DNA of 46,028 bases, from the NCBI GenBank assembly GCA_964636545.1, contig CAZWSR010000006.1, positions 1 to 46,028 on the forward strand. The letters are read 5' to 3'. The translations under genes and the position numbers were made by a program. The notes beneath the pieces are model-generated. The model was not told where the DNA came from. It ran no database searches and saw nothing but the letters and a program-made list of their open reading frames with translations. The stretch comes from Candidatus Undinarchaeota archaeon. Its GTDB lineage: Archaea; Undinarchaeota; Undinarchaeia; Undinarchaeales; UBA543. Positions 4,448-45,625 of the stretch are shown here, piece by piece. Position 1 is the first letter of the stretch. Every line of letters begins with the position of its first letter.

Positions 4448-4515
4448 CAGTAGTGGCACTGGGCAGTGGAAATTTACTGCTGCCCACTACCCACTACCAA
4501 CTGCCTGAACCAATT
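4448..4515 (+). repeat. Heptamer palindrome element (GGCAGTG/CACTACC type) plus TGAACCAATT anchor
   Basis: Right arm tgctgcc cactacc cactacc aactgcc, then tgaaccaatt. The left arm is a degenerate complement. Confidence 0.8.
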
Positions 4516-4553
4516 GGATTAACTTTAAATACAGATACTTCCTACCGCAGATT

Positions 4554-5114
4554 ATGAAAACCAAAATAATTCTTTTAACATTAATACTACTAACAGCTGT
4601 TTTAGTTGCTGGTTGCACGCAAGTTCCAGCAAAAGAACAGGAACTTCCAGAAACTACAGAACCAGTGGATGAACCAATTGATGAAGTACAAGTAGAACCA
4701 GAACCAATTATGGGAACAGACTGTGTAGTTGATACAGACTGTGACGATGATGATTATTGTACAACAGAAGCTTGTCTTAGTGGAGAATGTGTTAACACTT
4801 TGATAACTGGATGTATTTCAAAAAAGAATTTAGAACCGTACTTAGTTGCAGTAAATCTTGGAGATGATGAATGGATAGAACTCTACTCTGAGCAATACCG
4901 AGTTGACTTTTGGACAATCCAGAACCAGAATGGTACAGTATTTTACGAATTCCCAGACACTTTCACAATTAATAATAAATTAAGAATATACACTGAAAAT
5001 GGATTTGCAACAACAACAGAGTGGTATTTGTTTGAGAAAGATTTCTGGAATGAGGGCGACACAGTTTACCTGAAGAATGTTGATGGCGAAGTAATTAGTG
5101 AAATGAAAGGGTAG
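4554..5114 (+). CDS. Putative lipoprotein with a Cys/Asp-rich module and a lamin-tail-like domain
   Basis: LVAGC lipobox, acidic Pro-rich linker, CVVDTDCDDDDYCTTEAC, and EWIELY...WNEGDTVYLKN resembling an LTD. Confidence 0.65.
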   Translation: MKTKIILLTLILLTAVLVAGCTQVPAKEQELPETTEPVDEPIDEVQVEPEPIMGTDCVVDTDCDDDDYCTTEACLSGECVNTLITGCISKKNLEPYLVAVNLGDDEWIELYSEQYRVDFWTIQNQNGTVFYEFPDTFTINNKLRIYTENGFATTTEWYLFEKDFWNEGDTVYLKNVDGEVISEMKG

Positions 5115-5200
5115 TTGGTGAAATTGGTTCGGAATTTAGAGTTTGGAGTGTGGAATTTAGAATAGATTCTAAACTCTAAATACTAAACTCCAAATTCCAC
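5115..5200 (-). repeat. Heptamer palindrome element (GGAATTT/AAATTCC type) plus GAACCAATTTCACCAA anchor
   Basis: ggaattt agagttt ggagtgt ggaattt agaatag / attctaa actctaa atactaa actccaa attccac, abutting ttggtgaaattggttc. Confidence 0.85.
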
Positions 5201-5211
5201 ATAAAAAATAG

Positions 5212-5293
5212 CGCCGAGACCAGGATTTGAACCTGGAATCCCAAGGGGACTGGTTTTCGAGACCAGCGCAATACCAGATTATGCAATCTCGGC
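5212..5293 (-). tRNA. tRNA-Ser (anticodon CGA), CCA not encoded
   Basis: Acceptor GCCGAGA/TCTCGGC with discriminator G, anticodon arm CTGGT-CTCGAAA-ACCAG, long variable arm, T-loop GTTCAAATC. Confidence 0.95.
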
Positions 5294-5391
5294 ATATTTT
5301 AATACACGGAGCCCCTGCGCCCCGGATACATGATATTAAACACCTCAATAAAACAATAAACAACTCAAATAAAATAATAAAATAACCAATA

Positions 5392-5553
5392 CTATTTCTT
5401 CTTCTTCGAACGCAGACGAGTATAATGGCACTCTCTGCATTTGGCCTTTCCCAATCTAATGCGTCTCTTATCCACGCGGTTTAATGCATTACATTTTAAA
5501 CAGACATACACATTTTCAAACAAACGTGCTTCTGCTTCTGGAAATTTTGCCAT
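5392..5553 (-). CDS. rpl40e: 50S ribosomal protein L40e
   Basis: Below the ORF-track cutoff. [53 protein letters not shown], a Zn-ribbon CxxC...CxxC. Confidence 0.93.
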
Positions 5554-5590
5554 TGTAGTACTCCGTTAGATAATATACTGTATTTATAAA

Positions 5591-5676
5591 GTTTGTCCTA
5601 TCGATTAAGGCAGTGGGTGGTGGGCACTAGGCAGTGGGCCAGACCTACTACCCACTACCTACTACCTAGTGCCTTA
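5591..5676 (-). repeat. Heptamer palindrome element (GGCAGTG/CACTACC type) plus variant anchor AATCGATAGGACAAAC
   Basis: ggcagtg ggtggtg ggcacta ggcagtg / tactacc cactacc tactacc tagtgcc. The flank gtttgtcctatcgattaagg matches gtttgtcctattggttaagg at 32495. Confidence 0.85.
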
Positions 5677-5694
5677 TTAAATAAAATAACGAAA

Positions 5695-6126
5695 TTAAAC
5701 TGTAAATTTCTTAGCAGGCGAATTCTGCTCAACAATCCTATGTGAAGCATGAATAACTGCCTCATTAACTTGTTCAGAACCCCAGCCCCAATGCAGTAAA
5801 GCGTTTTTCAATTGAGTTGCTTGGTGCCCTTTTTTCATATTATGATAAACATAATGATATAATTCAAGTGATGAAACAACTTCTTTTACAAGCTTCTCAT
5901 TGTGGTTAGCATTAATCAGATTTTTCTTAATTGTTTTCAAGTTGCGACCTAAACGCAATTCGTGTTTAACATGCTGTTTTATTGTTTCTTTAGATTCCAG
6001 CATAAGACCATAACGATGATTTCTGCGCCAATTATAAACTGAATAACCGCCAGCAGCAGCTAAAGAAGCAGCAGATCCACCTAGAATAAGTTTTGCACTT
6101 GTATCTAATACAAACGGTAGCGCCAT
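5695..6126 (-). CDS. Hypothetical protein with an N-terminal hydrophobic segment and two short helical repeats
   Basis: ORF; probable start MALPF at 6126. Confidence 0.6.
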   Translation of the reverse strand: MALPFVLDTSAKLILGGSAASLAAAGGYSVYNWRRNHRYGLMLESKETIKQHVKHELRLGRNLKTIKKNLINANHNEKLVKEVVSSLELYHYVYHNMKKGHQATQLKNALLHWGWGSEQVNEAVIHASHRIVEQNSPAKKFTV

Positions 6127-6157
6127 AATAAAATAGTGGTGCATCTGCTATTTATAC

Positions 6158-7756
6158 TTATTTTTTAATGCATGCTTTAACAAAATGCACAAACAGCGGA
6201 GCTGGTGATTCAACTCTGGACTTGAATTCTGGATGCCCTTGTGTTGCAATAAAGAATGGATGATTTGGCAGTTCCAAGATTTCCATTATTGGAGAACCAG
6301 GAGCTTTTCCTGAAAACTTTAATCCATTTTTCTCAAGAACTTCAATATATTCTGGATTCAGCTCATAACGATGTCTATGCCTTTCATGAACTAGAGTTTT
6401 ACCATAAATCTTGTACGCAAGTGTGCCTTTTTCAATTTTGCATGGCCAGGAGCCAAGCCGCATTGTAGCACCCATATTGATTCCATCATATTGATCAGGT
6501 AGAATACAAATTATTGGATGTTTTGGATTTTTCTTAATTTCAACAGAATTTGCACCTTTTAGATTGCAAGCTTTTCTAGCAAAACCAACAGCTGCCATTT
6601 GGAAACCATAACATAATCCAAGAAACGGAATCTTGTTTTTCCTAGCATAATTTATTGCAGTGATTTTTCCTTCAGCTCCACGAGAACCAAAGCCACCAGG
6701 AACAAGCAAACCATCAACCTTGTCTAAAATGCGAACTTTGTTTTTGTCTTTTTCAAAATCAGTTGTTTCAATCCATTCAACCTCAACTTCACAATTATTC
6801 TCAGCACCAGCATGTTTGAGTGATTCTAAAATACTAACATAGGAATCAGAAAGAACAGTATACTTTCCAGCCATTGCAATTTTCACTTTCTTTTTTGGCT
6901 TAAGCATTCGGTTGACAATTTTCCGCCAGTCATTCATGTTCTTGTTGCCTTTCTTTTTCAAGCCAAATTTTTTCATTAACTTGCGGTCAAGACCTTCTTT
7001 TTTCAAAAGAAGTGGAACTTCATACAAGCTTTTGCAATCGGGATCTGAAATAACATGATCAGCATGAACATTGCAGAAATTTGCAATTTTTTCCTGAGTT
7101 TTCTTGTGCAATCGTTTTTCAGCTCTTGCAACAATGAAATCTGGCTGTATTCCTGCTTCTTGCAATCTCTGAACACTGTGCTGAGTTGGTTTTGTTTTCT
7201 GCTCACCAACAACACTTAGAGACGGAACTAAAGTAACATGAATAAATGCAACATTTTCATCACCATCTTTCAAGTGCATTTGTCGAACTGTTTCCAAGAA
7301 AGGCATGCTTTCAATATCTCCAACTGTTCCACCAAGCTCAATAATACAAATTTCAAAACCCTTTGCAGCCTTATGAATTTGATCGCGGATTTCGTGTGTA
7401 ACATGCGGAATTATTTGAACAGTTTTTCCAAGATAGTCACCTTTTCTCTCTTTGTCAATAACTGCTTTGTATGCCTTGCCAGTGGTGATGTTATTATTTC
7501 TTTTAAGATTGATACTCAAAAAGCGCTCGTAATTTCCCAAATCCATATCACATTCGCCACCATCATCAAGAACAAAAACCTCACCATGTTCAAATGGATT
7601 CATTGTACCAGCATCAACATTAATGTATGGATCAATTTTTACAATAGTAACTTTGTAGCCAGCTGCTTTTAGAAGACGCCCGATAGAAGAAGAGACAATA
7701 CCCTTACCAAGCCCGGAAATCACTCCGCCGGTAGTGATAATGTATTTTGTTTGCAT
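6158..7756 (-). CDS. pyrG: CTP synthase
   Basis: GGVISGLGKG, KIDPYINVDAGTM, GLCYG and ATQGHPEF. Confidence 0.97.
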   Translation of the reverse strand: MQTKYIITTGGVISGLGKGIVSSSIGRLLKAAGYKVTIVKIDPYINVDAGTMNPFEHGEVFVLDDGGECDMDLGNYERFLSINLKRNNNITTGKAYKAVIDKERKGDYLGKTVQIIPHVTHEIRDQIHKAAKGFEICIIELGGTVGDIESMPFLETVRQMHLKDGDENVAFIHVTLVPSLSVVGEQKTKPTQHSVQRLQEAGIQPDFIVARAEKRLHKKTQEKIANFCNVHADHVISDPDCKSLYEVPLLLKKEGLDRKLMKKFGLKKKGNKNMNDWRKIVNRMLKPKKKVKIAMAGKYTVLSDSYVSILESLKHAGAENNCEVEVEWIETTDFEKDKNKVRILDKVDGLLVPGGFGSRGAEGKITAINYARKNKIPFLGLCYGFQMAAVGFARKACNLKGANSVEIKKNPKHPIICILPDQYDGINMGATMRLGSWPCKIEKGTLAYKIYGKTLVHERHRHRYELNPEYIEVLEKNGLKFSGKAPGSPIMEILELPNHPFFIATQGHPEFKSRVESPAPLFVHFVKACIKK

Positions 7757-7830
7757 ACTGATGGGAGGTTAAGGTGGTATAAAAGCTTTACTCAAACCAA
7801 AACACTTATTTATACAAAATCTTTATCCCG

Positions 7831-8259
7831 ATGATGAGAGAAGAACAAATTCACAAAATTGAGACACATATTGCTGGCATTTGTATTAATGCAGATGGTA
7901 AAATTCTGATTGCAAAGCGCAATGCTGAGAGGAAGATTTATCCAAATATGTGGGAATGTGGTGGCGGCCAAGTGCATGCTGGCGAATGTTTTGAAGATGC
8001 TGTAAAACGACAATTAAAAGAAGAATTGGGCGTTATAATTGAACCAGAGAAAGTTTTAGGAATTTACAAAATACAAGTTCCAGATGAAGAGCAGAAAGTT
8101 ATTCCAGGTGTAAAATTCAAATGCAAAATAACAGGATTTGAAAATGGAAATGAACCAACCGCTTGCTCAGAATTTAGTGAATGGAAATTCATTGGAAAAG
8201 AAGAATTGGATAATTACGAATTTATTCCAGGGATAAAGGAAGATTTGTTGGGACTATAA
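7831..8259 (+). CDS. NUDIX hydrolase
   Basis: Variant Nudix box GGQVHAGECFEDAVKRQLKEELG. Confidence 0.85.
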   Translation: MMREEQIHKIETHIAGICINADGKILIAKRNAERKIYPNMWECGGGQVHAGECFEDAVKRQLKEELGVIIEPEKVLGIYKIQVPDEEQKVIPGVKFKCKITGFENGNEPTACSEFSEWKFIGKEELDNYEFIPGIKEDLLGL

Positions 8260-8735
8260 TGGAACATTCAACAAAAACAGGATTCAGTTTCGGAATCACA
8301 ACAGCAGTAATTACAACACTCGGGCTAATGGTTGGACTAAGTTCTGGAACAAATTCACAGCTCGCAGTTATTGGAGGAATTCTCACAATTGCAATTGCAG
8401 ATGCGTTTTCAGATGCATTGGGTATTCATATTTCAGAGGAATCAGAAGGTAAGCACACCCCAAAAGAGATCTGGACTAGTACTGGTGCAACTTTTCTGAC
8501 GAAGATAATTTTCGGGTTGTCATTCCTTGTGCCAGTTCTGATTTTCCAGCTCTCAACAGCAATTATTGTAAGCATTGTGTGGGGACTGTTGATTATGGGA
8601 GTTTTCAGTTTCTATCTTGCAAAACAAGAGAAAATAAAAGCATGGAGAGTAATTCTGGAACATCTATTAATTATGGCAGCAGTTATTGCAATAACCCATT
8701 ATCTTGGAATTGGAATTAAGATAATGTTTGGTTAA
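8259..8735 (+). CDS. VIT1/CCC1-like membrane protein (putative metal transporter)
   Basis: About five TM segments; IAIADAFSDALGIHISEESE. Confidence 0.7.
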   Translation: MEHSTKTGFSFGITTAVITTLGLMVGLSSGTNSQLAVIGGILTIAIADAFSDALGIHISEESEGKHTPKEIWTSTGATFLTKIIFGLSFLVPVLIFQLSTAIIVSIVWGLLIMGVFSFYLAKQEKIKAWRVILEHLLIMAAVIAITHYLGIGIKIMFG

Positions 8736-10903
8736 AGTTTTAGTTTTTTCAAAAGCAAAGAATTTGTTACAACACTCACAGAACTGAATGCCATTGCTGC
8801 CCCCGCCAATATTGGTGAAAGAAGCCATCCAGTAAATGGATAAAGCACTCCAGCAGCTACTGGTATTCCAAGAGTATTGTAGAATAAAGCCCAGAACATG
8901 TTTTGCTTGATTTTTCTCATTGTTGATTGGCTTAATTTAATGGATTTGGCAACATCAAGTAAGTCATCCTGCATTAAAACAATGTTTCCTGTCTCCATTG
9001 CAACATCAGTGCCTGATCCAAGTGCAATTCCAATATCTGCTTGCGCAATAGCTGGAGCGTCATTAATTCCATCACCAACCATGGCAACTTTTCCTTTTTC
9101 CTGTAGTTGTTTAACATAACCAAGCTTGTCTTTTGGTAGAACATCAGCAAAAACATTAGTGATTCCAACACTGGTTGCTATTGCTTTTGCAGTTCTCTCA
9201 TTATCACCAGTTATCAAATAAACTTCTGAACCAAGATCTTGTAATTCTTTTACTGCTTGTTTTGAAGTTTCTCTAAGAGTATCAGCAACACCAATTAATC
9301 CAAGAACTGTTTTAGTATCTGAAAGAACCATTACTGTTTTTCCTTGTGATTCTAATTCAGTAATTTGAGTAACATGCGCTGAAACATCAACCTTATTGAC
9401 TTGCATTAGCTTCTTGTTTCCAAGCAAATATTTCTGAGAATTAATTGTTCCAGAAACACCATGGCCAGGAACTGCAGTAAATCCAGAAACTTTATCCAAA
9501 GCCAGACTGCCAGCTTTCTTGACAATTGCATCTGCAAGAGGGTGCTCTGAAGCTTTTTCAAGGGAAGCAGCTATTTTCAAAACTTCGCCACTAAATTTAA
9601 CAAGATCAGTAACTTCTGGCTTTCCTTTTGTTATGGTGCCTGTTTTGTCAAGGATAATGTAGTCAAGCTTGTGCGCGGTTTCAAGTGCTTCACCACCTTT
9701 GATGAGAATGCCATTCTGTGCCCCTTTCCCAGATCCAACCATTATTGCAGTTGGTGTTGCAAGACCAAGAGAACATGGACATGCAATTACTAAAACTGCA
9801 ACTGAGGCAATTAATGCAAATGATAATTCAACTGAAAAGATGAAGAACCATGTAATAAATGTTAATATTGAAATTACAATCACAATAGGTACAAAATATT
9901 TTGAAACAGTGTCTGCAAATCTCTGAATAGGTGCTTTCTGAGCTTGCGCATCGTCAATAAGCTTAATTATTCTTGAAAGAGTTGTGTTTGCTCCAACTTT
10001 TGTTGCTTTAAAAGTGAAAGAACCATTTTTGTTAATTGTTGCTGACAAAACGTCAGATCCTTTTTTCTTTTCAATTGGAATACTTTCCCCAGTAACCATG
10101 CTCTCATCAACAGAAGATGTCCCTTCTAAAATAACGCCGTCAACAGGAACTCGCTCACCTGGCTTAACCATAATAATATCGCCAACTTGCACACCATCAA
10201 TTGAAATACTCACAAACTCGCCATTACGCTTGACCATAGCGGTTTTCGGACTTAATTGCATGAGTTTTTTAATTGCTTCAGAAGTCCTACCTTTTGCAAT
10301 TGATTCAAAATACTTGCCCATAATAACAAGTGTTATCAAAATTGCGGAAGTTTCAAAATACTGGCCACTGCCAGGATTGAAAAGTACAAGATAAACACTG
10401 AAAAAGTATGCAGCACTTGTACCAAGAGCAATTAGCGAATCCATATTTGCTGATTTGTTTTTGAGTGCAGACCATGTCCCTTTGTAAAATTGCCAACCAA
10501 CAATGAACTGAACAGGAGTTGCAAGGAACCATAATATATAATCATTATACGGAATCATAATTCCAGCCCACATGAAAACCATTCCGAAAATAAATGCAGG
10601 AATTGCGAAAATCATACTAAACAAAAATCTTTTCTTAAAATAATCAACTTCTTTTTTCTGAAAATTAGAATCCTTGAGAACATCTTCTTCTTTTAAAACT
10701 TCAGCTGTAAAACCAATGCCTTTTATTAATTCCATAAGCTTAGCTTCATTAATTACAGTGGGATCGTGCTCAACGATTGCTTTTGCTGTTCCAAAATTAA
10801 CAGCTGTTTTTGAAACCCCATTCTCCTTGTTTAAGGTTGTTTCAATATTGGCAGCACAGCTTGCACAGTGCATTCCAGTTACTTGAAATGTTGTTTTAGT
10901 CAA
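8732..10903 (-). CDS. copA: Cu(I)-translocating P1B-type ATPase
   Basis: GMHCASC, TGES, CPC, DKTGT, HP, GDGINDAP, YN and MAFSS. Likely TTG start at 10903. Confidence 0.95.
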   Translation of the reverse strand: MTKTTFQVTGMHCASCAANIETTLNKENGVSKTAVNFGTAKAIVEHDPTVINEAKLMELIKGIGFTAEVLKEEDVLKDSNFQKKEVDYFKKRFLFSMIFAIPAFIFGMVFMWAGIMIPYNDYILWFLATPVQFIVGWQFYKGTWSALKNKSANMDSLIALGTSAAYFFSVYLVLFNPGSGQYFETSAILITLVIMGKYFESIAKGRTSEAIKKLMQLSPKTAMVKRNGEFVSISIDGVQVGDIIMVKPGERVPVDGVILEGTSSVDESMVTGESIPIEKKKGSDVLSATINKNGSFTFKATKVGANTTLSRIIKLIDDAQAQKAPIQRFADTVSKYFVPIVIVISILTFITWFFIFSVELSFALIASVAVLVIACPCSLGLATPTAIMVGSGKGAQNGILIKGGEALETAHKLDYIILDKTGTITKGKPEVTDLVKFSGEVLKIAASLEKASEHPLADAIVKKAGSLALDKVSGFTAVPGHGVSGTINSQKYLLGNKKLMQVNKVDVSAHVTQITELESQGKTVMVLSDTKTVLGLIGVADTLRETSKQAVKELQDLGSEVYLITGDNERTAKAIATSVGITNVFADVLPKDKLGYVKQLQEKGKVAMVGDGINDAPAIAQADIGIALGSGTDVAMETGNIVLMQDDLLDVAKSIKLSQSTMRKIKQNMFWALFYNTLGIPVAAGVLYPFTGWLLSPILAGAAMAFSSVSVVTNSLLLKKLKL

Positions 10904-10905
10904 GA

Positions 10906-12164: not shown

Positions 12165-12169
12165 TTTAT

Positions 12170-12607: not shown

Positions 12608-12636
12608 GTGTTTGAAACAGCATATAACTTATAGCA

Positions 12637-12650
12637 TGAAACTAGTTTCA
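12637..12650. promoter_or_regulatory. Perfect 14-bp palindrome TGAAACTAGTTTCA, putative operator
   Basis: Lies just upstream of an AT-rich TATA-like box for the 12607 gene. A further TGAAAC half-site sits at 12613-12618. Confidence 0.45.
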
Positions 12651-13502: not shown

Positions 13503-13503
13503 T

Positions 13504-18149: not shown

Positions 18150-18150
18150 A

Positions 18151-24759: not shown

Positions 24760-24843
24760 GGTAGTGGGCAGGAGGCACTAGGCAGTGGGAACCAAACTAC
24801 TACCTACAACCCACCACCTACCACCTGAACCAATTTAACAAAT
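24760..24843 (+). repeat. Heptamer palindrome element (GGCAGTG/CACTACC type) plus TGAACCAATTTAACAAAT anchor
   Basis: ggtagtg ggcagga ggcacta ggcagtg / tactacc tacaacc caccacc taccacc, then tgaaccaatt. Confidence 0.85.
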
Positions 24844-29737: not shown

Positions 29738-31030
29738 TTAGCTCAGGAAAGCTTTTGGATCTATTCTTTCAGAAATCTCACCTGCAATATTCTCAAGCAT
29801 TTTCTCTTTAATTTCTTCTTTAGTCTTCCATTCCTTGTGTCCTAAAACCCAACCAAGTTTGACATAAGCTGTTTCAGGTAGCATATCTTTTAGGAAAATT
29901 GCTCCAGAATCCAACATCAAGCGCCCTGCTGCATAAACATATGGATCAGTTGTTCCATAAAGAGTTTGAGTAGTAATTCCAACAAAAACACCTTTGCTAG
30001 TTGCTTTCTTAATGCTGTCAAGCCAGCTGTTCTTTTTATCAAGTGGTTGAGTTGCAACATGACCAAATCCAGTTCCAGCAATTATTATTCCTTTGTATCC
30101 CTTGCTAACAAGTGAATCCAGCAATTCTGGTTTTGCACCAGGATAAGCATGAATTAATGCAACTTTTTCCTCAAATTTATTATCAAGTTCAACTTCTCCA
30201 CTTTCTCGTGAATTGTGGTCAGTGTTCTCGATTATCAAGTTGCCATCTGGGAAGATTTTTGCAAGTGGAGAATCATTTATTGGCCTGAAAGAATCTCGTC
30301 TGGATGAATGCATTTTTCGAACCTTTGCTCCACGAGTTGCAATGCAATAATCATCTTCATTAGTTGCATGCATTACAATTGAAACTTCTGAAATATCTGA
30401 TAAACAATAATGAGCTGCGCAAAGCAAGTTCTGTGCACCATCAAATGAACCGCGGTCTGTTGAACGCTGTGCACCAACAACAGCCACTGGTTTGTTGAGC
30501 TTTCTTAGCATAAATGATAATGCAGCTGCAGTGTAATGCAAAGTGTCTGTGCCATGAGTTACAATAACCCCTTCTGCCCCAGAATTAAGCTCTTTAGCAA
30601 CGGATTCTGCGATTTTGCCCCAATCAGTTGAACTCATGTCTTCACTCAAAAGTTTAAACGGACTTATTAAATTTTTAATACTAACATAATCAGCAAGCTC
30701 AGGCACTTTTCCAAGCAAATCCTCTGCAGATTCTGAAGGAAAAACTCCACCTGTTTTGTAATCAACTTCAGAAGTAATTGTTCCGCCAGTTGAAACAACT
30801 GAAATTGGTGGTTTTGTCTTGTCAAACTTTGTGGTTTTCTTTTTTGGCCTTGCTCCTGCTTTTTCAATAACATTAGAAGAAATAATACTGTCCTTAGGCA
30901 ATCCGATATTATATCCGTTTTCCAGTTTTAGCACTAAGTGAGTATCATCTGCAAGCCCTGGGCGCGGTATTAGAATTCCCTGATATTCGCGCTTTTTTGT
31001 CTTTATTTTGACAAGGTCGCCTGTGTTCAT
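29738..31030 (-). CDS. gatD: Glutamyl-tRNA(Gln) amidotransferase subunit D
   Basis: KLENGYNIG, TGGTI, HGTDT, QRSTDRGS and KMHSSRRD. Confidence 0.96.
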   Translation of the reverse strand: MNTGDLVKIKTKKREYQGILIPRPGLADDTHLVLKLENGYNIGLPKDSIISSNVIEKAGARPKKKTTKFDKTKPPISVVSTGGTITSEVDYKTGGVFPSESAEDLLGKVPELADYVSIKNLISPFKLLSEDMSSTDWGKIAESVAKELNSGAEGVIVTHGTDTLHYTAAALSFMLRKLNKPVAVVGAQRSTDRGSFDGAQNLLCAAHYCLSDISEVSIVMHATNEDDYCIATRGAKVRKMHSSRRDSFRPINDSPLAKIFPDGNLIIENTDHNSRESGEVELDNKFEEKVALIHAYPGAKPELLDSLVSKGYKGIIIAGTGFGHVATQPLDKKNSWLDSIKKATSKGVFVGITTQTLYGTTDPYVYAAGRLMLDSGAIFLKDMLPETAYVKLGWVLGHKEWKTKEEIKEKMLENIAGEISERIDPKAFLS

Positions 31031-31096
31031 GAGAATGAGTAATTAGGACTAGGTTATAAAGTTTCTCAGAACACCACAACTCTGCTGATATTTGAA

Positions 31097-31210
31097 TTGG
31101 TGAAATTTGTTAATTGGTTCTTGAGTGGCGCTCCAGAGTGCAGCGCGCACTGCATAAAGCCCATTCACCTTCGGTGAAGGGGCTTAAACAATTCTGTAGA
31201 AATTGGTTCG
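31097..31210. other. GC-rich hairpin cluster bracketed by two AATTGGTTC anchor motifs
   Basis: TGCAG-cgcgca-CTGCA and AAGCCC-a-TTCACC-ttc-GGTGAA-g-GGGCTT; aattggttc at about 31112-31120 and 31201-31209. Confidence 0.55.
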
Positions 31211-31229
31211 ACCTGTTTGGATAAATGTT

Positions 31230-31379
31230 TCAGAAAACTCCAGTTAGTTTCAATATCAACAAAACAAACCCAATAAAAACCAATACACTAACAATAATTG
31301 GAGCAAATGTCATAAACAAAAACAGTTTCTCCCGCTTTTTTGGGTCTTTCAATATTTTCTTGATAAATCTACTAGTCAT
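31230..31379 (-). CDS. Small single-TM protein (49 aa)
   Basis: MTSRFIKKILKDPKKREKLFLFMTFAPIIVSVLVFIGFVLLILKLTGVF. Its ATG overlaps the upstream stop (TAATG). Confidence 0.7.
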   Translation of the reverse strand: MTSRFIKKILKDPKKREKLFLFMTFAPIIVSVLVFIGFVLLILKLTGVF

Positions 31380-31744
31380 TACCTAAGACTCTTCTCAACA
31401 GGCATTAAAACAACGTATCCAAGAAAATCACCTTTAGAAACTTTCCCATCAACAATAGGAGTAAATCGAGCATAACCAATTGTCCTGTCCATATCCAATG
31501 GCTTTGGCTCTGCTTCACTTACACCAGAAACATTTCCGTGCTTGTTCATCCTGTACATAGATGGGAGCACAATATGATTTGCAGGAACAGCAATTCGATT
31601 CACACGAATTGAATGGCAACGACCCTTCAGAACATCATGATCTTCTTCTGCAACTAAATGCTCAAGCTTCCAGTTTGCCTGTTTAAGACCGACTGCATGC
31701 TTTTTTTGTTTGAAATCCTGCCAGAAATTTTCAACTGTTGTCAT
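31379..31744 (-). CDS. DUF22-like protein
   Basis: IAVPANHIV...GNVSGV...P...DRTI...F.P..DG.V..GDFLG pattern; located after atpD. Confidence 0.7.
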   Translation of the reverse strand: MTTVENFWQDFKQKKHAVGLKQANWKLEHLVAEEDHDVLKGRCHSIRVNRIAVPANHIVLPSMYRMNKHGNVSGVSEAEPKPLDMDRTIGYARFTPIVDGKVSKGDFLGYVVLMPVEKSLR

Positions 31745-31749
31745 TTTTT

Positions 31750-31832
31750 GTTTGTCCTATTGGTTAGTGTTGTTCGTTATTGGTTGTTCGTTATTCGTTA
31801 CGAATTACGAAATACAAACAACGAATTACACT
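31750..31832 (-). repeat. Heptamer palindrome element (TTCGTTA/TAACGAA type) plus AACCAATAGGACAAAC anchor
   Basis: agtgttg ttcgtta ttggttg ttcgtta ttcgtta / cgaatta cgaaata caaacaa cgaatta cact. Confidence 0.85.
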
Positions 31833-31834
31833 AT

Positions 31835-32491
31835 TTAACCAAGTGACGCCTCCTTCTTTTTTGCTAATTTGCCTTTAATTTTCTTTAATCGTGAAAAGTC
31901 CTCTCTTTCCATTTCATCCAAACGCATTCTAATGAATGTGCTTGTGTTTTTCATTCTTGGAATAACAATATACTCAAGTGCATTTACACGTCTTTTTGTT
32001 TTCTCAACTTCAGTTGCCAACATCTCAATTGTTTTCTCAATCTCAGCCATTTGCACAACAAGCGAAAGTGCACTGTCAAATTGGCCAGCTGCTTCATCCA
32101 AACTTGCTGAAGTTGTAATTGGACTGTAACCGCGGTTTCCAAGATTCCTCTCATCTTCTTCCAAAGCAATTTCAGGAACTTTTATCCCAATAATATTCTT
32201 GGTTTCAAATTTCGCATTTGCAATCTCGCGAACTGCCATTGACGCACTCTTGACTTCAAGCGGACCCATAATTGCTTTGGCTTTCACCAAATCCATATAG
32301 GCCTGTTTGAAATGCTTTTCAACATCATCCCGCAAAGTAGAGCCTTGCTTGATAATTTCCAGGAACTTCATAATCAATGCATCGCGCTTTTCTTTTAGGA
32401 GTTTGTATCCTTTGTCAGCTAGCTTGATCTTTTTCCTGAGCTTTATCAGCTCCATGCGGGTCGGGTTTATTCCCGATATTATGTCGGTCAT
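31835..32491 (-). CDS. atpD: A-type ATP synthase subunit D
   Basis: PTRMEL, LLKEKRDAL and KTKRRVNALE. Confidence 0.96.
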   Translation of the reverse strand: MTDIISGINPTRMELIKLRKKIKLADKGYKLLKEKRDALIMKFLEIIKQGSTLRDDVEKHFKQAYMDLVKAKAIMGPLEVKSASMAVREIANAKFETKNIIGIKVPEIALEEDERNLGNRGYSPITTSASLDEAAGQFDSALSLVVQMAEIEKTIEMLATEVEKTKRRVNALEYIVIPRMKNTSTFIRMRLDEMEREDFSRLKKIKGKLAKKKEASLG

Positions 32492-32494
32492 TTG

Positions 32495-32572
32495 TTTGTC
32501 CTATTGGTTAAGGTATGAGCCCTCGGCCTTCAGCTGTCAGGTCCTGACTGCTGAGGGCTGACTGCTGACACC
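32495..32572 (-). repeat. Heptamer palindrome element (nnTCAGC/GCTGAnn type) plus AACCAATAGGACAAAC anchor
   Basis: Its reverse complement is nearly identical to 45545-45625. Confidence 0.92.
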
Positions 32573-33951
32573 TATTCTTTCAAATATTTCTCAATCTGAG
32601 CTGGTTTCAGTCGCTTTAGCTCTTCTTTAGGTAATATCTTGAACATATCCCAGCAAATTCCAAGAGTGGTTTCAATACTGCGGTCTTCATCCTTGCCCTG
32701 AGTAACAAAACGCTTCTCAAATTCTTGTGAGAATTTTAGGAACGCCTTATCTCGGTCAGACAAAGCTTCTTCACCAATAACAGCAACCAAGTCCTGCAAG
32801 CTTCTTCCTTCAGCATAGCCAGCATATCCCTGGTTTGAAACACCTGAATGGTCTTCTCTGGTCTTACCTTCGCCAATACCCTTGTTCATCAAACGAGACA
32901 AGCAAGGAAGCACATCAACTGGAGGGAAAACACCTTTCTTGTGCAAATCCCTTGAAAGAACAATCTGTCCTTCTGTAATGTACCCAGTAAGATCAGGAAT
33001 TGGGTGTGTTATGTCGTCCTGAGGCATGGAAAGAATTGGAAGCTGTGTAATTGAACCTTTTTTACCTTCAATTTTTCCAGCTCGCTCATACAATGAAGCC
33101 AAATCAGTGTACATGTATCCAGGATAACCACGTCTTCCAGGAACTTCTTCTCGAGCAGCTGAAATTTCTCGCAATGCTTCGCAGTAGTTTGTCATGTCGG
33201 TCAAGATAACAAGAACATGCATACCTTTCTCAAATGCAAGATATTCTGCAGCTGTAAGTGCAGCTCTTGGTGTAATGATTCTCTCAATTGTTGGATCATT
33301 TGCCAAATTAACAAACATCAATACTTTCTCAAGTGCGCCAGATTTCTCAAAGTCCTCTTTGAAAAATGCAGCTTCTTCAAAAGTAATTCCCATTGCAGCA
33401 AAAATTACAGCAAAGTCCTCTTTTGAACCAAGCACTTTTGCTTGCCTTGCAATCTGCGCAGCAAGTTCATTGTGCGGAAGTCCAGAACCTGAGAAAATCG
33501 GAAGTTTCTGTCCTCGAACAAGTGTATTCATCCCATCAATTGTGGAAATACCTGTCTGAATGAAATCCTCTGGATATTCTCGAGCAGTTGGGTTTATTGG
33601 AGCACCATTGATGTCAATGAATTTCTCAGCAACAATCTTTGGACCGCCATCAAGTGGTTCGCCTCGTGAGTTGAAAACACGACCAAGCATGTCTTTTGAA
33701 ACCGGAAGCATAACACCTTTTCCAGTGAATCTGGTGCTTGTCTTGTCAGTATCAATTCCACGAGTTCCTTCGAAAACCTGCACAATTGCAGTTTCTCCAG
33801 CAACCTCAAGAACCTGTCCGTATCTCTTTTCCTTTTCAGGTGTCTTTATTTCCACAAGCTCGTTGTATGTTGCGCCTTCTACGCCGTCAACAACAATCAG
33901 CGGACCGCTGACTTCTTTTACTGTTGAATATTCCTTGTTTTTTTCACTCAT
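32572..33951 (-). CDS. atpB: A-type ATP synthase subunit B
   Basis: [24 protein letters not shown] and [15 protein letters not shown]. Confidence 0.97.
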
Positions 33952-37205: not shown

Positions 37206-37206
37206 T

Positions 37207-37788: not shown

Positions 37789-37793
37789 TTTAA

Positions 37794-39254: not shown

Positions 39255-39303
39255 TTTAATTCACCTCTGCAGTTTTTGTTCATTGTTGAGATTTTTGTAG
39301 TTT

Positions 39304-41274: not shown

Positions 41275-41280
41275 TGCTTT

Positions 41281-41598
41281 TTAGTCCTCTCTAAGTATGT
41301 GTTTGACAACTGCTTCAACTGCAGTATCCATGTGTTTTTCGCACTTTTTCTCCTCGTGCTCAATATCTTTCTTTGCTTTCTGAATAACTTGAGATGCTTC
41401 TTTTTCAGAACTATCTTTTGATTTTGCAATTAGAGCATTCGCTTCTTCATCAGCTTTTTTAAGAATTGTTTCACGATGCATAGAACTGTCTTTTGCAGCC
41501 TTTTCAAGAAGCTTTTCTGCTTCTTTCTGGGCTTTTTCCACAAGTGCGTCTGCCTTGTGTTCTGCTTCTTTTATTTGAACTAGTGCTTGCTTTGGCAT
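41281..41598 (-). CDS. atpH: A-type ATP synthase subunit H (G-like peripheral stalk)
   Basis: IKEAE..A coiled coil; first gene of the operon. Confidence 0.85.
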   Translation of the reverse strand: MPKQALVQIKEAEHKADALVEKAQKEAEKLLEKAAKDSSMHRETILKKADEEANALIAKSKDSSEKEASQVIQKAKKDIEHEEKKCEKHMDTAVEAVVKHILRED

Positions 41599-41845
41599 TT
41601 TTTCACCTATTTAAGATTAGAATCCCCGCTCGTATGATTAAAATGTGCGCTTACTCTCTCCCCTCTTTATTCATGAATAGTACGCGTGTGGTTTTTTCTA
41701 TGAGCACTAGATATATATAAATGTAGTTGTTCGTGAATCTTTTGAGTGGAAAAGTTGTTTTTTGGGCATATGTAACTCCTAGAAACTGCTATACTCCACT
41801 TCCCTAAACTTTTTATATTCGGGATTTGAGTAACTATTGATAAAA

Positions 41846-42769
41846 ATGGCTAGCTATGTAGTTACAGGGGGTGCGGGTTTTATTGGCACTAACATTGTTG
41901 AGGAGCTAATAAAACGCGGACAAGAAGTAAAAGTTATAGATGACCTGAGTACAGGAAAGCGCTCAAATCTAAAAGATTTTATGAGTGACATTACTTTTGT
42001 AAAGGGCAGTATCATGAATTATTCACTGCTCAAAAAGGAATTTCAAGGATTTGACTATGTTTTGCACCAAGCAGCTGATGTTTCAGTGCAGAGTTCAGTA
42101 AAAAATCCATCTGGAACAGCAAAAACAAATGTACTTGGCACAATTAATGTTCTAAAAGCAGCAAAAGATGCTGGAGTCAAGAGAGTTGTTCTTGCATCTT
42201 CATGTGCTGTTTATGGCGAATATCCAACTGCAGTTAATGAAAATACACCACTAAAACCACTTTCACCATATGCTGTTACAAAATCATCTGCAGAAAGTTT
42301 TGCAAAGTTGTATAATGAATTATATGGGCTTGAAACAGTTTGTTTACGATATTTCAATGTTTTTGGACCAAGACAGGATGACAAAGCAGATTATTCTGCT
42401 GTTATTCCAAAATTCATCAAAATCATAAAAGGTAGGAGAAGGCCTACAATTTTTGGTGATGGATTCCAATCACGCGATTTTGTTTATGTGTCAAATGTTG
42501 TTGAAGCTTGCTTACTAGCTTGCACAAAACAAGGAGTTTCAGGCAAGATTTACAATATTGGAACTGGAATCAGCACTGACCTGAACAGTTTAGTAAAACA
42601 CTTGAATAAAATTTTGGAAAAAAGTATGGAACCAAAATATGAAGAACAGCGTGCAGGCGATATAATGAATTCTAAAGCAAATATCGGACTTGCACGAAAA
42701 GAACTTGGATATTTCCCAAAAGTTGACATGGTTGGAGGCCTTAGGCGCACTGTTGAATTTAATAAATGA
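41846..42769 (+). CDS. NAD-dependent nucleotide-sugar epimerase/dehydratase
   Basis: TGGAGFIG, YAVTK and RYFNVFGPRQ. Confidence 0.93.
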   Translation: MASYVVTGGAGFIGTNIVEELIKRGQEVKVIDDLSTGKRSNLKDFMSDITFVKGSIMNYSLLKKEFQGFDYVLHQAADVSVQSSVKNPSGTAKTNVLGTINVLKAAKDAGVKRVVLASSCAVYGEYPTAVNENTPLKPLSPYAVTKSSAESFAKLYNELYGLETVCLRYFNVFGPRQDDKADYSAVIPKFIKIIKGRRRPTIFGDGFQSRDFVYVSNVVEACLLACTKQGVSGKIYNIGTGISTDLNSLVKHLNKILEKSMEPKYEEQRAGDIMNSKANIGLARKELGYFPKVDMVGGLRRTVEFNK

Positions 42770-44028
42770 GTAAGGTTTGTGTTGTTGGACTTGGTTATGT
42801 TGGATTGCCGTTGGCATGCTTGTGCGCAAAGAAGGGGCACGGAGTTGCTGGATTAGATATTGATTCTGAAAAAATTGAGCAAATTAATAACGGAACTAGC
42901 CCAATTAATGATTCTGCACTTGTTACTGCAGTTAAGGAAGTGCAAGGAAAATTAAAAGCAACAACTGATGCAAGTGTTGTAAAAGAAGCTGAAATCATTA
43001 TAGTGTGTGTTCCAACACCAGTTGATGAGAACAAACACCCAAATCTTGAGCCATTAAAGAAAGCTGTGAAAACAATTTCTGAGAATTTACAAAATGGACA
43101 AGTGATTGTGGTTGAGTCAACAATTTTCCCAGGAACAACTGAAGATATTTTGAAACCAATACTTGAAGAAAGTGGTTTGAAAGCTGGAACTGACTTCTTT
43201 GTTGCACACTGTCCTGAGAGAATTGATCCAGGAAACAAAAAATGGACTTTGGAAAATATTCCAAGAGTACTTGGTGCAGGTTCTGAACAAGGTGCAGAAA
43301 AAGCAAAGCAGTTTTATGAATCAATTCTGACTTCGCCAGTAAATGTTTTATCCACACTCAAATCAGCAGAAGCAGTCAAGGTTGTTGAAAACACTTTCAG
43401 GGACATAAATATTGCTTATGTTAATGAGCTTGCAAAATCATTTGATAAAGCAGGAATTGATGTTGTTGAAGTTATTGAAGGTGCTGCAATCAAGCCATTT
43501 GCATTTATGGCGCATTATCCAGGATGTGGGGTTGGTGGCCATTGTATTCCAGTTGATCCATATTACTTAATTGACAAAGCAGAGCAGGATGGTTTCAAAC
43601 ATACTTTTTTGAAAATGGCAAGGGAAATTAATAACAGCATGCCTCAGTACACAATTGACTTATTGGAGAACCTTGCTGGTGATTTAAGTGGTGCAAAAGT
43701 TGGAGTACTTGGATTAGCTTACAAGCCAGATGTTGATGATGTTAGGGAAAGCCCTTCTTTGGATATTATTAAAATTTTAAAGCAAAAGAATGCTGAAGTT
43801 ACTGTTTTTGACCCAAATATTCCGGAAAAAAGCGATGCTGGGTCACTTGATGAAGTTTTAGAGAAAGTTGATTATGTTGTTGTTGCAACAGCGCATAAGG
43901 AATTTAAGGCAATTAGTGCAGAGCAATTGAAAAATGCAGGAATTAAGGCAATTGTTGATGGGCGAAATTGTTTAGATAAGAAATCAATTGAAAGTGCTGG
44001 TGTGAAGTATAAGGGGATTGGGCAGTAA
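42766..44028 (+). CDS. UDP-N-acetylhexosamine dehydrogenase (WecC/WbpA family)
   Basis: GLGYVGLP, CVPTP, ESTIFPG and GVGGHCIPVDP. Confidence 0.93.
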   Translation: MSKVCVVGLGYVGLPLACLCAKKGHGVAGLDIDSEKIEQINNGTSPINDSALVTAVKEVQGKLKATTDASVVKEAEIIIVCVPTPVDENKHPNLEPLKKAVKTISENLQNGQVIVVESTIFPGTTEDILKPILEESGLKAGTDFFVAHCPERIDPGNKKWTLENIPRVLGAGSEQGAEKAKQFYESILTSPVNVLSTLKSAEAVKVVENTFRDINIAYVNELAKSFDKAGIDVVEVIEGAAIKPFAFMAHYPGCGVGGHCIPVDPYYLIDKAEQDGFKHTFLKMAREINNSMPQYTIDLLENLAGDLSGAKVGVLGLAYKPDVDDVRESPSLDIIKILKQKNAEVTVFDPNIPEKSDAGSLDEVLEKVDYVVVATAHKEFKAISAEQLKNAGIKAIVDGRNCLDKKSIESAGVKYKGIGQ

Positions 44029-44060
44029 ATTTTCAAACCCGCAACACTTATAAACTATTA

Positions 44061-44076
44061 ATGAAATAGAATTCAT
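44061..44076. promoter_or_regulatory. ArsR/SmtB-type operator ATGAA-N6-TTCAT
   Basis: Lies between TATA (cttataaa, 44047-44054) and the ArsR ATG. TGAA-N6-TTCA is the CzrA/SmtB-type core. Confidence 0.6.
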
Positions 44077-44376
44077 ATGAATTGCAATTCAATTAATGTA
44101 TTCTTTCAGAACTTTGCAAATAAAGCAAACCTAGATATTATTCTGGCTCTGAGAAATGGGCCTAAAAACGTTAAAACATTGTGCGAGTGTGTCTGCTGTG
44201 AGCAGTCAGCTGTTTCGCACAACCTCAAGAATTTGTGCAACTGCAATATAATTTCTGGTGAAACAAAAGGACGAGAACGAATTTATTCGCTGAACAGCGA
44301 CACAGTTGTCCCATTACTACAGTTAGTTGAAACCCATGTAAAAAAACACTGCTGTAGCGGATGTACAAAAAAATGA
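44077..44376 (+). CDS. Cys-rich ArsR-family regulator
   Basis: EQSAVSHNL and GRERIYSL; Cys clusters CECVCC, CNC and HCCSGC. Confidence 0.85.
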   Translation: MNCNSINVFFQNFANKANLDIILALRNGPKNVKTLCECVCCEQSAVSHNLKNLCNCNIISGETKGRERIYSLNSDTVVPLLQLVETHVKKHCCSGCTKK

Positions 44377-45587
44377 CAAAAGAAGTTTACCTGGATTCAG
44401 GAGCAAGCACACAAGTTGATCCACGAGTTGTTGAGGTTATGTTGCCATACTTTAATGAAAAGTACGGTAATGCAAGTTCAATGCACACTTATGGAAGAGA
44501 TGCAAAAGAAGCACTTAACAAAGCAAGGCGGCAAATAGCTAGTCTGCTTGGTGCCAAAGAAAAAGAAATAGTTTTCACATCAGGTGGAACAGAATCAAAT
44601 AATTTCTGTTTGAAAAGCGTTGCTTTCACTAATCGTGAAAAGAACCACATAATCACATCAAATGTTGAGCACAAGTGCGTAATGAACACATGCAAGTGGC
44701 TTGAAACACAAGGTTTCAAAGTAACTTACCTTGAAGCAGATAATGAAGGTTTGATTAAAGCAGAAACATTGAGAAACGCTATTACTGACAAGACTTTGAT
44801 ATTTTCAGTAATTCATGGAAATAATGAAATTGGAACAATCCAAAACCTTGAGGAACTTGGAAAAATCTGCAAGGAGAAAGGAGTTCTGTTCCACACAGAT
44901 GCATGCCAAAGTTTTACAAAAACAGATATTGATGTTGACAAACAGAATCTTGATTTTGTAACATTGAATTCTCATAAAATACATGGGCCAAAAGGAGTTG
45001 GAGCATTGTATATTCGAGAAGGTTCTCCAATTGAAACATGGCAACATGGTGGCGGACACGAATTTGGATTGCGATCAGGAACTGAGGACATTCCAGGAAT
45101 TGTTGGATTTGCAGAAGCAGCAAAACTGGCTACAAATACTGCACATGTTGAGAAAATGACAAAAATGCGGGACAAGCTAATAGAAAGTGCAATGGCTCTT
45201 GGAGATGTTAAATTAAATGGAACAAAAGGAACTGCGCGATTATGTAATAATATTAATTTGTCATTCCAAATGATTGAAGGTGAAGCACTTGGCGGATATC
45301 TTGACCAAAAAGGAATTGCAACATCAACTGGCTCAGCATGTTCAGCTAAAACACTTGCACCAAGTTATGTTCTGAAAGCAATTGGATTAACTGATGAGGA
45401 AGCAAATGGCAGTTTACGATTAACACTAAGCAGATTTACAACTGAAGAAGATATTGATTATGTGCTAGAACACCTTCCAAAGATTGTGAAAAAGCTCCGT
45501 GGCTTCTCGCCATTGAAAAAAGTAACTGATTATGTAATGAAGAAGGCGTCAGCGGTCAGCCCTCAGCAGTCAGGACCTGATGGCTGA
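44373..45587 (+). CDS. iscS: Cysteine desulfurase (IscS/NifS type)
   Basis: FTSGGTES, HTDACQ, SHKIHGPKG and STGSACS. Start MTKEV at 44373. Confidence 0.95.
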   Translation: MTKEVYLDSGASTQVDPRVVEVMLPYFNEKYGNASSMHTYGRDAKEALNKARRQIASLLGAKEKEIVFTSGGTESNNFCLKSVAFTNREKNHIITSNVEHKCVMNTCKWLETQGFKVTYLEADNEGLIKAETLRNAITDKTLIFSVIHGNNEIGTIQNLEELGKICKEKGVLFHTDACQSFTKTDIDVDKQNLDFVTLNSHKIHGPKGVGALYIREGSPIETWQHGGGHEFGLRSGTEDIPGIVGFAEAAKLATNTAHVEKMTKMRDKLIESAMALGDVKLNGTKGTARLCNNINLSFQMIEGEALGGYLDQKGIATSTGSACSAKTLAPSYVLKAIGLTDEEANGSLRLTLSRFTTEEDIDYVLEHLPKIVKKLRGFSPLKKVTDYVMKKASAVSPQQSGPDG

Positions 45588-45625
45588 AGGCCGAGGGCCG
45601 ATACCTTAACCAAAAGGACAAAAAC
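45545..45625 (+). repeat. Heptamer palindrome element (nnTCAGC type) overlapping the iscS 3' end, plus AACCAAAAGGACAAAA anchor
   Basis: ggcgtcagcggtcagccctcagcagtcaggacctgatggctgaaggccgagggccgataccttaaccaaaaggacaaaa, a near copy of 32495-32572. Confidence 0.92.

Follow-up and report, generated by a model that had tools for sequence, protein, structure and literature searches.

Dispersed heptamer-arm hairpins with a travelling AACCAAT tail in an Undinarchaeota archaeon, probable miniatures of four-helix-bundle gene cassettes

Here we examine seven short hairpins built from 7-nt units and accompanied by a constant AACCAAT-type anchor in a 46,028-nt stretch of DNA (the window; contig CAZWSR010000006.1 of assembly GCA_964636545.1, positions 1 to 46,028 of the forward strand) from a Candidatus Undinarchaeota archaeon. 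The window is contig C6 of a 39-contig, 840-kb assembly (G000; 37% G+C, 83% complete), whose 23S genes are partial and lie on contigs C27 and C28. Its host is recognized as an archaeon by the GatD and GatE genes and the A-type ATPase operon, by matches to the archaeal large-subunit (LSU) model, and by its promoter and Shine-Dalgarno (SD) signals: in counts over upstream regions, TATA-like hexamers peak 20-40 nt before start codons, and GGAG, GAGG and AGGA peak at 10-20 nt, with both types of signal in use. Near-identical DNA is present in 20 sequencing runs, all of DNA and none of RNA, from 15 studies, sampled from seawater, marine and hydrothermal-vent sources and, in one case, labelled plain metagenome. 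For comparison we utilized two congeners of the same genus, G001 (AtpD 92% identical to that of G000) and G002 (85%); G001 was taken as loci amounting to 659 kb, to which 66 hairpin sites of G000 were mapped through their flanks, 47 of them being colinear.

The hairpins were first noticed in a sequence-only reading of the window, and on re-reading all seven elements are present at the positions noted, with the four unit types described. Each arm consists of 3-5 degenerate heptamers and is followed by a complementary run; the folds reach -24 to -35 kcal/mol and were equalled by 0, 0, 3, 3, 0, 0 and 10 of 200 shuffles each, and the loops, 1-12 nt long, have no room for an open reading frame (ORF). 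The first element (4446-4517, plus strand) has GGCAGTG-type arms at 4446-4507 and the anchor GAACCAATTG at 4508-4517, with GAACCAATT beginning at 4508; the TATA box and leaderless start that follow it belong to the gene at 4554. The hairpin folds at -26.5 kcal/mol (0 of 200 shuffles as stable), and its orthologous site in G002 is empty and without anchor. The second (5119-5198, minus strand), with GGAATTT-type arms at 5131-5198 and the anchor GAACCAATTTCACCAAC at 5114-5130 (reverse complement of GAACCAATT at 5119-5130), sits between the stop codon of the gene at 4554-5114 and a convergent tRNA gene (5212-5293), the only feature of the window to reach the gathering score in an Rfam scan. Its fold has a z score of -6.96, its hairpin is missing in G002, and a copy at C12 12274 is 87% identical to it over 85 nt. 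The third (5591-5672, minus strand) combines GGCAGTG-type arms (5606-5672) with a variant anchor, TAATCGATAGGACAAAC (reverse complement of 5591-5610), located directly upstream of the TATA box TTTATAAATA of a 53-aa gene (5392-5553) whose product has no Pfam match. At this site G002 has no hairpin, yet ACAAACTTT and the TATA box are common to both genomes, and G001 carries a GGCGTTA-type hairpin with GAACCAACATGATAAAC.

The fourth element (24760-24843, plus strand) is found between the TatD gene and the next gene and consists of GGCAGTG-type arms (24760-24826) and a two-iteron anchor, GAACCAATTTAACAAAT (24827-24843), again beginning with GAACCAATT; the corresponding junction in G001 has neither hairpin nor anchor. 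Two further elements occupy the ATPase operon. That at 31750-31843 (minus strand) has TTCGTTA-type arms (31765-31833; fold z -6.1) and the anchor AACCAATAGGACAAAC, containing GTTTGTCCTATTGGTT at 31750, which with AAAAA and ATG (reverse complement of 31745-31766) leads into a DUF22 gene. That at 32494-32573 (minus strand) has nnTCAGC-type arms (32511-32573), and its anchor TTAACCAATAGGACAAAC, with GTTTGTCCTATTGGTT at 32494, is followed by AA and the ATG of atpD, while the stop codon TAG of atpB touches the arm opposite the anchor. The seventh, a polymorphic insertion (45532-45629, plus strand) between the cysteine desulfurase (class-V aminotransferase) and NifU genes, spans 98 nt, i.e. a 93-nt element plus a 5-nt duplication ATGTA, and contains an nnTCAGC-type hairpin (45545-45606) and, from 45606, the variant anchor TTAACCAAAAGGACAAAAACAAAA. 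The anchor had been described as standing on one side only, which holds for six of the seven; the 31765 hairpin has a second TTAACCAAG at its far side (31835-31843), where it overlaps the atpD stop codon.

A genome-wide scan, proposed on the strength of the window, bears out both the prominence of period 7 and the enrichment of the anchor at the edges of such arrays. Across the 840-kb genome we identified 129 period-7 arrays, compared with 51 at period 6 and 26 at period 8. A looser definition gave 151 period-7 loci, which yielded 90 hairpins with at least 16 pairs, of which 54 were strict, both arms being clearly periodic. An outward-facing AACCAA occurs within -8 to +24 nt of the stem end in 27 of the 54 strict hairpins (on both sides in two) where about 3.5 are expected, and the inverted word beside none of the 54; a random intergenic 32-nt window holds AACCAA in 3.3% of trials, giving a binomial P of about 3e-18. 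The outward anchor likewise accompanies 5 of 26 hairpins in G001 (about 0.7 expected). The long anchor AACCAANAGGAYAAA has 10 matches in the genome, all of which abut a hairpin, and this same 15-nt tail stands beside several unit families, three of which had been noted in the sequence-only reading. Elsewhere the pattern has one match each in G001 and G002, both beside hairpins, and one each in four other relatives, in coding-like sequence and at background level. The long anchor is thus a genus-level feature, hairpin-associated matches being confined to G000, G001 and G002. We also considered AACCAA as a general promoter or SD element and rejected this, as it occurs at 81 places in 835 upstream regions with no sharp peak. 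Hairpins ending in TTAACCAA were seen on another contig of the same genome. Forty-six of the 151 loose loci fall inside ORF calls (e.g. C10 1655-1733, C12 3348-3446, C14 4043-4119 and C1 156082-156347), some as hybrid arrays that would read as low-complexity protein segments and some as plain A-rich low complexity.

Filled and empty sites and swaps of unit type, anticipated among relatives, were found in G001, G002 and metagenome contigs. At the seventh element, contigs of two independent runs (X2 and X5) join 45531 to 45630, skipping 98 nt with 5 letters that fit either side; the missing segment comprises the hairpin, the anchor TTAACCAAAAGGACAAAAACAAAA in full and a single copy of ATGTA. The 878 nt preceding the junction in the X5 contig (record 24) show 4 differences (~99.5% identity), X4, a third run, has a contig that reads through the filled form (record 16), and G001 has the same empty junction. 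Among species, G002 is empty at 4448, at 5591 and at the two ATPase junctions. The atpB-atpD junction holds a TCAGC hairpin with TTAACCAATAGGACAAACAAATG in G000, a GGGGCTAG-type hairpin with CTAACCAACAGGAAAAATAAAAATG in G001, and only an 8-nt spacer, lacking the anchor, in G002; at the atpD-DUF22 junction, stop and start are adjacent (TAAATG) in G001 and G002, and hairpin and anchor are present only in G000. In general, 14 of the 47 colinear sites leave at most 30 nt in G001, 13 of these without hairpin or remnant, and the anchor is missing from 8 of 9 empty G001 counterparts of G000 sites that bear it or a close variant. These empty counterparts, together with a strain-level empty allele without anchor, indicate that the anchor is part of the inserted DNA. 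The initial idea of an anchor at which hairpins are written is therefore not supported as first put, the anchor not simply being a pre-existing site. The loci are not invariant terminators; both their presence and their unit family differ among relatives. Insertion polymorphism, and an anchor that travels with the element, are thus direct observations.

Dispersal is equally direct: an 82-nt stretch of the 45545 element is 100% identical to a copy at C10 23341, and other pairs of copies are 83-92% identical over 79-98 nt, tail included. Identical dispersed copies and precise empty and filled alleles show that the hairpins are dispersed mobile DNA copies and were not grown in place. Slippage and palindrome formation in situ, tolerated by the host and with the anchor as a by-product of survivable places, would account for the variation in unit number and sequence and for the period-7 loci within ORF calls (46 of 151). 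It is contradicted, however, by the 82-nt identity at two unrelated loci and the 83-92% pairs that include the tail, by precise presence or absence with a 5-nt duplication, by the 15-nt tail found beside several unit families and next to a hairpin in 10 of 10 cases, and by arms that enclose one specific gene family in 4 of 4, and we find it hardly credible.

That gene family encodes a four-helix-bundle protein. Heptamer arms around TIGR02436-type genes had been mentioned for some bacteria in the sequence-only reading, and the same applies here: all four TIGR02436 genes of G000 (E 3e-35 to 3e-30), on contigs other than C6, are flanked by inverted arms of heptamers or octamers, one a G/T-rich array and the other its complement. 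Arrays enclosing an ORF were found as suggested, with a four-helix bundle as cargo; the enzymes also named there, an HUH transposase of the RAYT type (REP-associated tyrosine transposase; REP, repetitive extragenic palindromic) and a reverse transcriptase, were not found in the 83%-complete G000 assembly. The units differ in each cassette (GGTATCT/GGGATCG, an 8-mer of GGGGCTAG type, TTCGTTA type and TCAGC type); in every one the left arm is followed by a mini-hairpin (AACTC..GAGTT) and a TATA-like box, and in three of the four the right arm is followed, in gene orientation, by an anchor-like tail. The protein family is present in 8 of 31 related genomes including G000, all carriers belonging to the same phylum, and is absent from 14 more distant archaea searched; all carrier assemblies are incomplete, and mobile genes often go unassembled. 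In the seven other carriers, 12 of 18 full-length cassette loci have flanks that, at period 7 or 8, both score 14 or more self-matches out of 21; of the rest, five have shorter arrays by eye and one has long-period repeats. Among solved structures, the protein matches the pentameric four-helix bundles 2gsc and 2rld, and its family membership is clear (E 5e-35); its match to the Avd model of diversity-generating retroelements is weak (E 5.4e-5) and below the cut-off.

Cassettes and gene-less hairpins share several of their arm types. Three of the four cassette arm types in G000 (TCAGC, TTCGTTA and GGGATCG) recur as gene-less hairpins, the TCAGC and TTCGTTA elements of the window having cassettes with such arms on C1 and C4, and GGCGTTA, the commonest hairpin type of G001, matches the arms of a resident G001 cassette. 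One operon junction holds a full TCAGC cassette in G000, a gene-less GTCAG hairpin in G001 and an array of a third type in G002; at a neighboring junction G001 and G002 have a cassette and G000 keeps ~20 nt of the left arm. From the shared arm types and this exchange at junctions, the window hairpins are best read as miniatures of the cassettes, of which, having no ORF between their arms, they are at most derivatives and not members. The suggestion that they are non-autonomous relatives of a dedicated cassette thereby gains support from copies in which the arms enclose a TIGR02436 gene.

On balance, we judge it probable that the hairpins are miniature, gene-less copies of mobile four-helix-bundle cassettes whose tail travels with the element. 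The elements are MITE-like (miniature inverted-repeat transposable element), currently mobile in an archaeon, and turn over their arms fast; that the miniatures derive from cassettes is what we infer. A full cassette would run from a left arm of 7-8-nt units through the mini-hairpin AACTC-N-GAGTT and a promoter with BRE (transcription factor B recognition element) and TATA box to the TIGR02436 gene, the right arm and an A/C-rich tail, and a miniature would retain left arm, right arm and tail. The tail may be described as 1-3 iterons of (T/G)(T/A)AAC(C/A)AAT at ~9-nt spacing; AGGA(C/T)AAAC and a short run of A often come next. Insertion would take place in intergenic DNA, in many cases precisely at the point where a stop codon gives way to the following start, and would at least sometimes duplicate ~5 bp of target.

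The anatomy of the tail suggests why such insertions might be tolerated. An alignment of 15 TCAGC copies is conserved from AGGT..TCAG to ACCTTAACCAA.AGGA.AAA on one side only, the upstream stop codon lying within a few bases of the arm on the other. The anchor takes two forms: in one, (T/G)(T/A)AACCAA(T/A/G) is followed by AGGA(C/T)AAAC, a short A run and ATG; in the other, GAACCAATT is followed by further AAC(C/A)AAT words at ~9-nt spacing, as in GAACCAATTTAACAAAT (24827) and GAACCAATTTCACCAAC (5114-5130). An ORF starts within 90 nt outward of 20 of 29 anchor sides versus 39 of 79 other sides, and a gene ends within that distance of 8 of 29 versus 42 of 79. Distances from anchor to start fall into two groups, 13-30 nt, which would suit an SD-type leader, and 40-61 nt, which would suit a place upstream of a TATA box. 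At empty operon junctions, stop and start overlap or abut and the SD lies inside the upstream gene, so that an insertion there would part the start codon from its SD; at filled ones the AGGA of the tail is 8-12 nt before ATG, the usual SD distance. Judged from sequence, the conserved asymmetric tail probably serves the downstream gene, and may act as its portable leader. The tail would face that gene, with AGGA replacing the displaced SD at operon junctions and, away from them, with the tail ~10 nt upstream of the TATA box, either of which would explain the tolerance of insertions.

The same positions could point to RNA elements that serve the host and are under selection, as intercistronic stabilizers, processing sites or insulators comparable to the REP sequences and bacterial interspersed mosaic elements (BIMEs) of enterobacteria, mobility being incidental. 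Such a role would be in keeping with stop-start operon junctions, a tail in the sense direction of the downstream gene and strong hairpins, as well as with two natural variants in runs X5 and X7, 32529 T>C and 32535 T>A, by which the 32511 stem regains pairs: they convert a T-G wobble and a T-T mismatch into Watson-Crick pairs, which marks the copy in the G000 assembly as the less perfect one. However, the same junctions work without hairpins in the congeners, the unit families are completely replaced (GGCAGTG 75 versus 0, GGCGTTA 0 versus 41), the A/C-rich tail that stands in place of a T run is not terminator-like, and the antisense strand is the better folder: in 16 of 25 anchored hairpins the sense, would-be mRNA strand folds worse, in 8 better and in 1 equally (P 0.018). 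We therefore hold a host-serving role to be unlikely. Intrinsic terminators were considered separately and rejected, as the stems are followed in the sense direction by an A/C-rich tail with no T run and several families are A+T-rich.

Unit families are specific to the species. In addition to the two just given, RGARTTT (57 in G000 and 0 in G001), TTCGTTA (32 and 1), GGGATCG (21 and 0) and GGCTTGT (0 and 10) differ sharply, and GAACCAATAGGACAAAC followed by ATG stands beside yet another unit type in G001 and beside a hybrid hairpin in G002. Fourteen of the 47 colinear sites hold a hairpin in both G000 and G001, nearly always of different families as read by eye, where 2-4 co-occupied sites would be expected from 26-60 hairpins per 690 ORF calls. 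Such observations raise the possibility that the anchor is an attachment or homing site beside which hairpins are inserted or arms rewritten, perhaps in addition to primary insertions that bring an anchor with them. Beyond this excess of co-occupied sites, it would be favored by anchors kept in place at C14 11712, C6 5608 and C6 32511 and persisting with a remnant at C7 44379, by anchors embedded between arm units in G001 (the C3 273 hairpin, ortholog of C17 822, and the right arm of the G001:C1 cassette), by hybrid arms of two families at 2362-2494, C5 19662 and elsewhere, and by three different elements at one junction in three species. Set against this, the 8 of 9 empty G001 sites and the strain-level allele without anchor indicate that a pre-existing anchor is not required, and co-occupancy could reflect a small number of permissive junctions, or ancient occupants that were later replaced as DNA was inserted and deleted nearby; furthermore, the count of 14 rests on reading sequences by eye. 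A homing site is accordingly a possible but doubtful explanation. Co-occupancy, hybrid arms and embedded anchors suggest that junctions are re-used or that new elements prefer existing ones, and a secondary preference of new elements for occupied, anchored sites is possible. In the reading as miniatures of mobile cassettes, species swap arm families rapidly yet retain the tail, and a junction once occupied tends to be filled again.

The hybrid array at 2362-2494 (minus strand), which the sequence-only reading did not list, occupies the junction of pyruvate:ferredoxin oxidoreductase subunit genes. It joins a G-rich arm of 8-mers of GGGGCACC type to ~12 C-rich 7-mer units (CCAAACC/CCTCAAA), the two arms not being complementary, and may be the product of two adjacent elements; similar hybrid arrays occur at C1 30527, C5 19662, C10 1640, C12 3333 and C14 4028. 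Among the GGCGTTA hairpins of G001 (e.g. orthologs of C3 57488, C3 58875, C6 5608 and C8 14271), the right arm is interrupted by a conserved A/C-rich module of ~25 nt, A[CT]TCAA.CAACTC....AACTCAAAAC; the module recurs in a hairpin of a different unit family, and the G001:C12 cassette has it in its right arm. A conserved feature of ~70 nt, TGGCTCAGCAGCTACC...TTCATGGCC, follows a heptamer element at C7 42855-43030 in G000 and at L047 1890-1990 in G001, the element being a gene-less hairpin in the former and a full cassette in the latter. Its first 12 nt are repeated across the hairpin in G000; the feature may be a small RNA gene and the 12-nt repeat a long target duplication.

AACCAAT-type iterons also bound a second, unrelated structured repeat family, represented in the window at 31075-31225 (minus strand) by a repeat of ~150 nt (150-170) with two stem-loops, upstream of the TATA box of GatD. 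There are six copies (on C6, C5, C1, C2 and C3, and a partial one on C7), with paired differences in both stems and a fold z score of -2.98; a search of 30950-31400 against Rfam gave nothing at E<=1. One metagenome contig skips 31124-31174 inside this repeat. A further indel polymorphism, in the divergent intergenic region between the ATPase operon and sugar-nucleotide genes, is seen in run X7, one contig of which passes directly from 41599 to 41799 and lacks 199 nt (88 letters on its shorter side); by eye it is not a heptamer hairpin.

Several observations weigh against the hairpins being miniatures of mobile cassettes that carry their tail with them. In half of the strict hairpins (27 of 54), the scored interval contains no AACCAA, and the two commonest families of G000, GGCAGTG and RGARTTT/GGAATTT, have no cassette in the 83%-complete assembly. 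At C7 44379, the exception among the nine empty counterparts, G001 keeps the anchor beside a 25-nt remnant, and part of the long anchor at 5591, ACAAAC, also stands in G002, where the site is empty; element and host are thus not always cleanly delimited. Of 14 empty/filled pairs, 2 show a clear target duplication, ATGTA (45532/45630) and CCATA (C2 75419, 5-6 nt), and the other 12, with flanks only 65-85% identical, give 0-3 nt or are ambiguous; flanking direct repeats of at least 6 nt, at 42 of 66 sites versus 41% of permuted pairs, are in modest excess. The poorer folding of the sense strand, the reverse of what had been expected for an RNA-level stem, gives no sign of selection for the hairpin in the message, and we attach no functional meaning to it. 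Finally, the models RVT_1, Y1_Tnp (PF01797), rve and DDE_Tnp_1 have no match in the 83%-complete G000 assembly, and we know of no catalytic activity of the four-helix bundle.

The gene-bearing partners encode only the four-helix-bundle protein and no recognizable transposase, and a TnpB zinc-ribbon model gives one sub-threshold match in G000 (16.9 bits); the candidates for the mover would be this protein together with host enzymes. Retroposition, in which an RNA copy would be reverse-transcribed into the target with the four-helix-bundle protein as an Avd-like accessory, would suit an A-rich 3' tail, a few variable 5' bases and duplications of variable length. It could draw on the weak, sub-cut-off Avd match, on the varying length of the A run, on left ends that differ by 3-6 nt between two 100%-identical copies, and on candidate flanking repeats of 4 to ~12 nt (ATGTA, CCATA, ATAAGC.TT and TGGCTCAGCAGC). 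In opposition, RVT_1 is found neither in G000 nor in any of the 8 four-helix-bundle carriers, all of them incomplete assemblies (1 of the 31 relatives has RVT_1, without a four-helix-bundle gene), and the only two well-supported duplications are both 5-6 nt, which leaves retroposition very improbable. A bolder extension of the cassette reading, which we put forward as speculative and rather unlikely, is that the four-helix-bundle protein, as a relative of the nucleic-acid-binding Avd pentamer, acts as the specificity factor of a mobility system without a conventional transposase, with hairpins of periodic arms that move and the AACCAAT tail as conserved end or homing site common to all arm families. 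If so, the intervening sequences of 23S rRNA, the excess of heptamer repeats in prokaryotes and the archaeal elements would form one ancient cross-domain system, and the tail on the 31075-31225 repeat would be a handle for moving different cargo.

Several known systems offer partial likenesses. Intervening sequences (IVSs) are defined by the excision of RNA by RNase III. In the accessible text on Coxiella burnetii, the 23S IVS is an S23p ORF within terminal inverted repeats that form a 28-bp stem and contain tandem GACAGAT heptamers, variable in number between strains, ORF-bearing IVSs are cited for Leptospira too, and older proposals held IVSs to be mobile elements or remnants of them (PMC4990558). 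The archaeal elements are alike in having the same protein family (S23p/TIGR02436) inside stem-forming inverted repeats. They differ in lying between protein-coding genes or beside a tRNA gene and not in rRNA helices 25 or 45, and in that most copies are gene-less, have an asymmetric tail and are polymorphic DNA insertions with target duplication. MITEs are similarly short and non-coding, with terminal inverted repeats, many dispersed copies per family, presence/absence polymorphism, larger gene-bearing relatives whose ends are the same, and a short target duplication, the last being clear at two sites in the present elements; here, however, the gene-bearing relative has no recognizable transposase, the inverted repeats are 7-8-nt periodic and make up nearly the whole element, and the tail is common to unrelated arm families. 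Multi-copy intergenic palindromes, often at operon junctions, also recall REP/BIME-RAYT systems, from which the elements are set apart by periodic arms, many families and the tail, and by the lack of any Y1/HUH transposase found in G000.

The short tandemly repeated repetitive (STRR) sequences of cyanobacteria are heptamer repeats, and such intergenic tandem 7-nt units, like those of Xanthomonas, resemble the arms described here. In Xanthomonas campestris, the source of 2gsc, a solved relative of the four-helix-bundle protein, 70 convergent pairs of GGGAATC arrays are able to form stem-loops, and the authors remark that no detailed literature on heptameric repeats existed; the available portion of their paper names no associated gene, mobility or constant flanking motif (PMC4692102). 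The present elements differ from Xanthomonas and STRR repeats in that each genome has several unit families, the host is an archaeon and the tail is common to the families. Integron attC sites are likewise imperfect palindromes of free sequence with a short conserved core, and the TCAGC family begins with GTTAAGG and ends with CCTTAAC, which we take to resemble the attC core and inverse core. This identity was rejected, given an ORF inside the hairpin with its own TATA box, a 5-nt duplication and no array beside an integrase, the integrase itself not having been searched for. We found no paper tying the TIGR02436 family to heptamer arms, or heptamer repeats to archaea, subscription journals being outside the coverage of the search. 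New here are the occurrence in an archaeon, an anchor that travels with the element, a live polymorphism and the turnover of families.

To our knowledge, the large TIGR02436/23S-IVS protein family has no established function. This work extends the design of a gene within a heptamer hairpin to Archaea and identifies gene-less copies that are mobile now, empty and filled alleles coexisting in marine metagenomes. Heptamer repeats are over-represented in many prokaryotes, and the papers searched, as far as their text is available, give no accepted explanation for this (PMC4692102). In small archaeal genomes, elements of this kind break contigs and can be misread as terminators, small RNAs or low-complexity protein segments. 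They colonize stop-start junctions of essential operons such as that of the A-type ATPase, for which a tail that may serve the next gene would account. Furthermore, the wholesale swapping of arms between sister species while the tail is kept provides a handle on mechanism, namely which protein binds the tail and which the arms.

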